This document shows positions 2,262 to 2,760 of a stretch of 14,720 bases of DNA, in pieces. Origin of the DNA: a virus (taxonomy: Duplodnaviria; Heunggongvirae; Uroviricota; Caudoviricetes); the IMG/VR virus record IMGVR_UViG_2877285697_000005; one strand, given 5' to 3'. Each line of letters starts with the position of its first letter. Within the stretch, counting starts at the first letter, position 1. The notes under the pieces were generated by a model. It did not search any database. It was given only the letters and a program-made list of their open reading frames with translations, and was not told where the DNA came from. Position numbers and translations under genes: made by a program.

Positions 2262-2567
2262 TTACTCTGGTTCTTTGGTCTTGCGACGCTGGAGTTCTTC
2301 GCGTGCAACGGTGACAAGCTGCCCGATTTCTTCCGCTGCTTTGATGCCGATTTGTTCGACCTTAGCCAGGGCATCCAGTGACGACACAAGGGGATTTTCT
2401 CCGCTGCCTTCTGCTTGGCGGCGGGCTATTTCTCCGCGCATGGCGGTTACGATAAATCCGGCATTGCTTTCGCCGTCCAGCTTAACGGATTCCATCCCTT
2501 GCATAACATCTAGTGGGACTCTGACAGTTGTCAGTTGTGATTTTGCGTTTTTGTTAGACGTTGCCAT
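2262..2567 (-). CDS. Putative ribbon-helix-helix-like DNA-binding regulator, candidate island repressor
   Basis: 101-aa ORF with strong Shine-Dalgarno (AGGAG 8 nt before the ATG). N-terminal TTVRVPLDVMQGMESVKL resembles the beta-strand plus helix start of RHH (CopG/Arc-like) proteins. Divergently transcribed from the replication operon across an operator-rich region. Function is inferred. Confidence 0.55.
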   Translation of the reverse strand: MATSNKNAKSQLTTVRVPLDVMQGMESVKLDGESNAGFIVTAMRGEIARRQAEGSGENPLVSSLDALAKVEQIGIKAAEEIGQLVTVAREELQRRKTKEPE

Positions 2568-2588
2568 TTCTGAAACTCCTAATCATCG

Positions 2589-2666
2589 GTGTGTTTCAGT
2601 ATACACAAAAAAAGAAATACAAAAAGCCTTGACGTGTGTTTCATGCGCTCATGACATGAAACACAC
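2589..2666. promoter_or_regulatory. Divergent promoter/operator region with three copies of half-site GTGTGTTTCA
   Basis: GTGTGTTTCA at 2589-2598. Perfect 12-bp inverted repeat GTGTGTTTCATG (2634-2645) / CATGAAACACAC (2655-2666) with a 9-bp spacer. TTGACG -35-like hexamer at 2629-2634. Confidence 0.45.
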
Positions 2667-2760
2667 CGAAAGGATTGTTGAAATACAAAGAGCAACGCCC
2701 CGCAGTGCCGGAAACACATACGGGGCGTCTAACCACAAACACTATAGAGAGGAAAAATTT

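Follow-up and report, generated by a model that had tools for sequence, protein, structure and literature searches.

In Gram-negative bacteria, phage-inducible chromosomal islands (PICIs), among them the capsid-forming islands (cf-PICIs) that move between species, are regarded as being under the control of the activator AlpA. In the complex of the ribbon-helix-helix (RHH) repressor Arc with its operator, residues Q9 and N11 contact the bases. Mnt has an N-terminal RHH and a C-terminal oligomerization helix that joins dimers into a tetramer. In P4 and P1, translation of a leader frame protects the transcript from Rho-dependent termination. Overexpression of AlpA alone induces the island EcCICFT073, and AlpA activates its own promoter as well as a downstream ORF3 fusion (PMC6092414). 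The global repressor in Gram-negative PICIs has been described as 'unclear' (PMC6092414), and the CI RNA of P4 has been mentioned for these islands (PMC10111431). The literature that we searched contains no description of the function of the YlcI/YnfO family, of an RHH regulator in PICIs, or of the module reported here. Here, we analyzed a 14,720-nucleotide stretch of DNA, hereafter referred to as the window, together with related loci. Based on its predicted fold, on the repeats next to its gene and on the way in which both vary among islands, a 101-amino-acid protein encoded between alpA and the replication genes is likely to be a site-specific RHH repressor of two divergent promoters.

The window can be described as a cf-PICI of the Escherichia type, in which int, alpA and a primase gene are accompanied by the island's own capsid, protease, portal, connector and terminase genes. 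There are no tail genes within the 14.7 kb, and the right end of the island falls beyond the window. The genes for the tyrosine integrase (1-1218) and AlpA (1573-1761) are on the plus strand, as is the gene of an Icd-like protein of 65 amino acids (2761-2958), which matches NF033153 with 64.7 bits against a cut-off of 25. A tblastn search of phage records with the Icd-like protein gave a single record, with no link to P4 or P1. The Icd-like gene is followed on the same strand by a 106-aa ORF, by DUF4222, by a D5-type primase (3559-5391), by an SSB, and by genes for the major capsid protein, the prohead protease, the portal, head completion, a connector, HNH, and the small and large terminase. 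Since the stop codon of the Icd-like gene overlaps the start codon of the next gene (ATGCCTGA, 2951-2958), the downstream replication genes are probably translationally coupled to this leader gene. Just 3' of the primase, at least six copies of ACTGTTCACC in both orientations form long imperfect hairpins (5390-5553). This iteron cluster, which gave spurious matches to microRNA families in Rfam, is probably the replication origin of the island. Related DNA was found by megablast in 1666 of 5426 complete E. coli genomes, at up to six places per genome.

The segment between alpA and the RHH gene is variable. Directly 3' of the alpA stop there is a G+C-rich hairpin, TGGCGGC-acaca-GCCGCCA (1768-1786), which has a T-run on neither strand and is retained in the islands of CFT073 and O157. 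Polymerase modified by AlpA could be able to pass this hairpin, which would otherwise act as a barrier. In the variable zone itself (1811-2219 on the minus strand, 1819-2260 on the plus strand), a 62-aa minus-strand ORF (2031-2219) matches phrog_21027, and the plus frame shows a CxxC...CxxC pattern. The same zone holds AntA or Bro-N genes, on the alpA strand, in three other islands (L019, L024 and L025; loci are numbered with the prefix L).

The gene of interest occupies 2262-2567 on the minus strand. It encodes 101 amino acids and is preceded by the Shine-Dalgarno sequence AGGAG (2576-2580), 8 nt upstream of the ATG, in agreement with the original prediction, which had also assigned an RHH-like N-terminus to the protein. 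That assignment is borne out by the predicted structure, which contains a strand-helix-helix fold of about 45 residues. An absent DNA-binding fold had been named beforehand as one refuting outcome, and on the predicted structure the proposal passed this test. Residues 9-50 match the curated family NCBIfam NF041551 (YlcI/YnfO_N) with 63.2 bits against a cut-off of 30. RefSeq likewise names the relatives YlcI/YnfO, and phrog_6522 matches the protein from end to end. There are 221 homologues across Enterobacterales, with protein-like conservation. The best fold match is a member of the CopG family (6iya); Arc and many RHH antitoxins (HicB, MazE9, TacA, ParD) are also among the fold matches. Pfam gave no match to the 101-aa protein at E <= 0.01, HTH families and Arc included, and nothing significant for 34 family members, 26 of which have a weak match to a Rv0623-like antitoxin (best E 0.0011). 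The hhalign alignment to Arc (1arq) is weak (E 0.0043, probability 8%) and in register, pairing L12, T14, R16 and P18 with Arc Q9, N11, R13 and P15. The alignment to Mnt is also weak, and approximate.

The protein could be divided into the N-terminal RHH (residues ~10-52) and a conserved C-terminal helical region (residues 59-97), which is drawn by AlphaFold, as a monomer, with a pLDDT of up to 94. Aligned family members barely differ in the C-terminal half, and their residues 11-17 fall into discrete types (LTTVRV, QISIRI, MKNIRF, SLTARI, QLNARF and others). The C-terminal region may be a coiled coil or may contain a helix-hairpin-helix. A profile search of PDB sequences matched residues 45-86 marginally to the helix-hairpin-helix region of Hef (1x2i, E 0.004). 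Residues I73-G74, which are invariant in the family, lie mid-way in what AlphaFold draws as one continuous helix.

The motif GTGTGTTTCA is present in exactly three copies in the 14.7 kb, all of them inside 81 bp, at 2589-2598 (plus), 2634-2643 (plus) and 2657-2666 (minus). By arithmetic, a 10-mer would be expected to recur exactly about 0.03 times in 2 x 14.7 kb. When one mismatch is allowed, only two extra, isolated matches appear (6634 and 10204), and shuffling gives an expectation of 1.18 matches per window at this tolerance. The outer copies agree over 13 nt (TCGGTGTGTTTCA, 2586-2598 and 2657-2669), and a perfect 12-bp inverted repeat is formed by GTGTGTTTCATG (2634-2645) and CATGAAACACAC (2655-2666), with a spacer of 9 bp. 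The original prediction had described the three copies between the minus-strand gene and the replication operon correctly, and had overlooked a fourth, degenerate copy, GAAATACAAA, at 2614-2623. It had also placed the inverted repeat around a -35-like hexamer. The repeat is as described, but the hexamer is not enclosed by it: TTGACG (2629-2634) abuts the left arm, and the element that lies between the arms is the predicted -10, TGACAT (2652-2657).

These repeats fall on the cores of two divergent promoters. A consensus promoter scan detected neither of them; both were placed by comparative alignment, for which control regions were aligned on the -35 hexamer and the scaffold was tabulated for 17 loci. 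The rightward promoter, P_icd, precedes the Icd-like gene and the replication operon. Its -35, TTGACG (2629-2634, plus), corresponds to a TTGACN (or TTGAAA/TTGCAA) that is kept in all 17 loci, with TAAnnT 17 bp further on. In the window, the predicted -10 TGACAT (2652-2657, plus) is a weak form of this TAAnnT at the conserved 17-bp spacing. The promoter of the repressor gene has the predicted -10 TATACT (2598-2603, minus), at a position where TATAAT, TATACT, TATATT or TATAGT is found in the 17 loci; its -35 is weak. Four predicted operator sites can be placed on this arrangement. Site A (TCGGTGTGTTTCA, 2586-2598, plus) lies directly downstream of the -10 of the repressor promoter, over the predicted transcription start. 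Site B, the degenerate copy, which reads TTTGTATTTC on the minus strand (2614-2623), is located in the spacer of the same promoter, and its position holds the own-type motif in other types (GAATCACA, GTCTTACA, GTGAATACC and GTGAGGTACA). Site C (GTGTGTTTCATG, 2634-2645, plus), the left arm of the inverted repeat, lies between the -35 and the -10 of P_icd. Site D, the right arm (2655-2669, minus; CATGAAACACACCGA on the plus strand), is found just downstream of the P_icd -10.

The comparison was based on 24 related loci: 11 of the 12 from a scan of species-representative genomes, 10 contigs of chosen family members, two E. coli DNA matches and EcCICFT073. In all 24 loci, the RHH gene has alpA on one side and, on the other, a divergent Icd-like gene, the first of the replication module. 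The order int, alpA, a variable segment and the RHH gene, divergent from Icd-like, DUF4222 and primase genes, is found in the window and in all islands examined, and the primase is of the D5, DUF927 or RepA-like type depending on the locus. The control regions share a common scaffold, composed of site A, the repressor -10 on the other strand, an A-tract, site B, TTGACN, site C in the 17-bp spacer, TAAnnT and site D. There are 13 types of N-terminus, each with its own repeated motif at the same four scaffold positions, and the -35, the -10 and the A-tracts keep their places. The strand LTTVRV or LFTVRV is accompanied by TGTGTTTCA, QISIRI by TGTGATTCA (an operator also given as GTGATTCA), SLTARI by TGTAAG/CTTACA, xKNxRI by TAAATACACAC and MKNIRF by GGTGTGTAC. 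Likewise, QLNARF is found with TGGTATTCA, QINARF with TGGGATTCA, MTTIRV with TGTACCTCA, MTTLRV with GTGAGATATAC and MISTRV with GTGTAGTC. Conservation of the inverted repeats in related elements had been set beforehand as a second refutation test, and the proposal passed it as well; the repeats are kept with the same strand and are replaced concertedly with a different strand. The motif of the window's type is shared by E. coli and is kept at its positions in Xenorhabdus, Photorhabdus and Serratia, despite diverged surrounding sequence. An identical AlpA (WP_000953272.1) accompanies two different repressor/motif pairs, and the same repressor and motif are found with DUF927 as well as with D5 primases. 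The motif varies with the RHH N-terminus alone, and with neither AlpA nor the type of primase. A 16.6-kb contig of Xenorhabdus vietnamensis (NZ_MUBJ01000038.1; L007 and L008) carries two RHH/Icd-like modules of the same type, a few kb apart and in opposite orientation, one of which has slightly degenerate operator copies.

Both experimental model islands have a shorter version of the protein. In EcCICFT073, a 59-aa YlcI/YnfO protein with the strand ALKARV and without the C-terminal region is encoded on the minus strand (L028 9474-9653), and GTGGGCCACAC is found twice around the -10 of the divergent Icd-like promoter. In an island of the EcCIEDL933 type from O157:H7 FRIK2069, the position of the RHH gene is taken by a 57-aa Arc-like ORF, beginning MSTPLEKRSPPYQMRLPEDF, which also lacks the C-terminal region (L022 3363-3536, minus). 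This ORF is not annotated in RefSeq and matches phrog_228, 'Arc-like repressor', with an E of 1.5e-6. The palindrome ATGGTAATTACC occurs twice just upstream of it (L022 3535-3546 and 3565-3576).

The original proposal of a dedicated repressor with its own operators, read here as autoregulated, thus gains good computational support, since the sites lie over both promoter cores and the motif co-varies with the N-terminal strand. Binding, repression, cooperativity and AlpA read-through are what we infer from this arrangement. The antiparallel β-ribbon of a dimer (residues ~11-17) would read a site of about 10 bp, GTGTGTTTCA in the window. The strand residues change in step with the motif, which indirectly supports a dimer that would insert its paired strands into the major groove. 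Four such sites would be occupied in the 193-bp divergent control region, between the -35 and the -10 and directly after the -10 of each promoter, and because of these positions their occupancy would block RNA polymerase at both. The leftward promoter would drive the repressor gene, and P_icd the operon that starts with the Icd-like gene and continues with DUF4222, the D5-type primase and further genes. The repressor would in this way limit its own level and keep the replication operon silent as long as the island is integrated. Dimers are probably linked through the C-terminal region, which would allow cooperative binding to paired sites about 23 bp apart. The orientation of the sites differs between types, the fold of the C-terminal region is ambiguous and two natural versions are devoid of it; for these reasons more than one binding geometry may apply. 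Induction would proceed via AlpA, as published for EcCICFT073. Most likely, AlpA-driven transcription from the alpA promoter would read through, antisense to the repressor gene, and would both bypass the repressed promoter and interfere with the synthesis of the repressor. Since overexpression of AlpA alone induces EcCICFT073 (PMC6092414), the repressor layer would be one that AlpA overrides or bypasses and not an absolute block. Against the repressor reading, the -10 of P_icd is poor in the window (TGACAT), neither promoter passes the consensus scan, and the EcCICFT073 and EcCIEDL933-type versions, of 59 and 57 aa, are without the C-terminal region. Furthermore, part of the co-variation of motif and protein could be simple linkage in a recombining cassette, because the N-terminal coding region and the operators adjoin. 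What carries the argument from co-variation is that four dispersed positions within a conserved scaffold change in concert.

A second element is found between site D and the Icd-like start. Here a cis-antisense RNA about 85 nt long, with two conserved hairpins, is predicted on the minus strand (2682-2768). Stem-loop 1 (2731-2766) would present in its loop the complement of the Icd-like Shine-Dalgarno sequence, and stem-loop 2 (2694-2729), together with a U-rich tail (2682-2693), is terminator-like. The candidate -10 of this RNA is TATGAT (2774-2779, minus), and a -10 resembling TATGAT, TATGCT or TATAAT is kept just inside the Icd-like coding region even where the N-terminus of the protein differs. 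Of the 24 consensus pairs in the minus-strand fold, 9 show compensatory changes, and the alignment contains 56 G-U cells versus 2 A-C cells. The consensus energy is -29.9 kcal/mol for the minus strand versus -14.0 for the plus strand, all 15 sequences fold better on the minus strand, and the copy in the window has a z of -5.07. Rfam at E <= 1 gave no family for a leader or antisense RNA, with C4 (RF01695), IsrK, sar and SymR included; the only match in the region was to SymR, at 24.7 bits versus a gathering score of 61 (E 0.5). The two-hairpin element is best read as a cis-antisense RNA that would block translation of the Icd-like gene. Placed over the ribosome-binding site of that gene, it would be a second, translational lock on the operon that the RHH protein would repress.

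On the plus strand opposite the repressor gene, one reading frame is free of stop codons from 1762 to 2958. This frame, which has its first ATG at 1819 (379 aa), starts at the base after the alpA stop, is in frame with both alpA and the Icd-like gene, and crosses the operators and the antisense strand of the RHH gene. In 18 of the 24 loci, with many operator types, the Icd-like frame is open upstream for 594-1233 nt, for example in L028 (8752-10053), L022 (2863-3864) and L013 (3373-4563). Given the codons of the RHH gene, the open antisense stretch is unremarkable (P 0.11-0.56). The open intergenic stretch, unlike the antisense one, is not unremarkable: its P is 0.007-0.10 in each of eight operator types, and the other two frames hold 2-10 stops. 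The intergenic lengths in the loci that keep the frame are 130, 187, 190, 193, 196 and 199, all 1 mod 3. The frame is dispensable, since the RHH gene and the sites are retained in the six loci where it is closed. NCBI PGAP labels the 5' part of the frame as an Icd-like pseudogene; of its translation, only the Icd-like C-terminus matches a family, and the part ahead of that domain has no Pfam or PHROG match. In EcCICFT073, a match to Bro-N below the threshold (E 0.069) was obtained for the long plus-strand ORF (L028 8767-10053, 428 aa).

As a working idea, which is a conjecture, translation of this frame would shield AlpA-driven transcripts from Rho and from the antisense RNA. The read-through that it presupposes fits the published activation by AlpA of its own promoter and of the ORF3 fusion, and the induction of EcCICFT073 by AlpA only (PMC6092414). 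Taken further, the module would be a two-way switch of three layers, in which a hypervariable RHH immunity repressor is combined with an antisense RNA that masks the Icd-like gene and with a stop-free bypass frame that is under selection. Transcripts driven by AlpA would then escape Rho, the antisense RNA and the repressor at once, and bypass transcription, being convergent, would shut down repressor synthesis. We put this extended model forward tentatively and regard it as possible but doubtful. If true, it would explain why AlpA alone can fire the island.

Other readings of the gene and its repeats were weighed against the same evidence. The long plus-strand ORF (1819-2958) might be the functional gene, with the minus-strand ORF as its shadow and the repeats as coding features, given that the frame is stop-free through the region in most loci and that part of it carries the pseudogene label. 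We find this hardly credible: it is the minus-strand protein that belongs to a curated family, with a confidently predicted fold and 221 homologues, the translation upstream of the Icd-like domain belongs to no Pfam or PHROG family, and the loci with a closed frame retain the RHH gene and its sites. Moreover, translation of both strands is possible, and the RHH gene stands regardless. It is very improbable, too, that the repeats bind another protein of the island, as their location between the integration and the replication modules could suggest, be it AlpA, the integrase (arm sites) or a primase/initiator (iterons). Identical AlpA proteins are found with different motifs and the same motif with different replication proteins, a separate and typical iteron cluster exists at 5390-5553, and the motif follows the RHH N-terminus alone. 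The AlpA-site and iteron readings were rejected because of this mismatched co-variation.

The many antitoxins among the RHH fold matches, and the 62-aa ORF (phrog_21027) that lies 42 nt downstream on the same strand, would fit a type II antitoxin whose toxin is encoded at 2031-2219 (minus) and whose autoregulatory operator is formed by the repeats. This is highly unlikely, since the islands do not share the downstream gene. In L016 and L018 nothing separates the RHH gene from alpA, and other islands carry unrelated downstream ORFs of 48-178 aa (the gene is absent or unrelated in L016, L018, L014, L019, L020 and L025). In addition, half of the sites are on the divergent replication promoter, where an antitoxin operator has no need of them, and the EcCICFT073 and EDL933-type versions lack a C-terminal partner-binding region. 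A conserved downstream toxin gene was not found, and a type II toxin-antitoxin system was rejected because of the synteny. A closer relative of our reading accepts that the sites are bound and makes the protein a copy-number controller in the induced state, or a factor acting mainly in immunity, which would keep co-resident or incoming islands of the same type from firing. Pairing of an RHH repressor with a countertranscript that covers the translation start at the head of a replication operon is how copy control is laid out in the plasmids pMV158 and R1, and here the antisense RNA is supported by compensatory changes and by minus-strand folding. The many orthogonal specificity types, and the up to six related places per genome, fit selection for immunity, and both variants are in line with the sufficiency of AlpA for induction (PMC6092414). 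We consider them unlikely; at the sequence level they look the same as a maintenance repressor, need the same binding and repression, and differ only in when repression matters. The preferred reading is a repressor of both promoters that would maintain the island in its silent state. It offers a concrete candidate for the missing repressor of Gram-negative PICIs, present in both experimental models, and suggests a testable function for the uncharacterized YlcI/YnfO family. Built on a single scaffold, the repressor-operator pairs, at least 13 of which seem to be orthogonal, could serve studies of how RHH specificity evolves, or supply parts for synthetic circuits.

Compared with known systems, the module appears functionally closest to Mnt/Arc with sar RNA in P22 and to copy control by CopG with RNAII. 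Like Mnt and Arc in the immI region of P22, the protein would be a small autoregulated RHH repressor with operators over two divergent promoters (Pmnt and Pant in P22), and a small cis-antisense RNA, sar in P22 and a predicted one here, is directed at the site where ribosomes bind a gene of the repressed operon. However, its sequence similarity to Arc is marginal (hhalign E 0.004), there is one repressor here and two in P22, and the target is a satellite replication module, whereas P22 represses an antirepressor gene. The four dispersed 10-bp sites also differ from the one 17-21-bp operator per protein in P22. With CopG/RNAII of pMV158 and CopB/CopA/tap of R1, the module would share a small repressor (an RHH protein in the case of CopG) acting on the promoter of the replication operon, and a countertranscript over the start of a leader gene whose translation is coupled to that of the following gene. 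In R1, furthermore, an unrepressed upstream promoter and a repressed internal one are parallel to PalpA and P_icd. In contrast to these plasmids, the repressor gene is divergent from the controlled operon and not inside it, and the element is an integrated phage satellite, in which AlpA and a helper phage turn on replication. P4 (CI RNA, kil/eta) and P1 (C4 RNA, icd-ant) resemble the locus in an Icd-like first gene, a structured RNA at its start and a long leader frame, but the predicted RNA of the window is cis-antisense, without a match to C4, IsrK or any other Rfam model, and a putative protein repressor is present as well. The Stl/Rpr master repressors of Gram-positive PICIs (SaPIs) also adjoin int, are divergent from the excision/replication operon and are presumed to keep the island quiescent (PMC6092414). 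Stl proteins are larger HTH repressors that are relieved by a helper-phage protein, whereas no HTH family was matched here and induction of Gram-negative PICIs runs through AlpA (PMC6092414). The putative RHH repressor is an analogue of Stl and not a homologue. Pairs of an RHH repressor and its operator are of a classic kind; new here are the place, a Gram-negative PICI, and the family, YlcI/YnfO.
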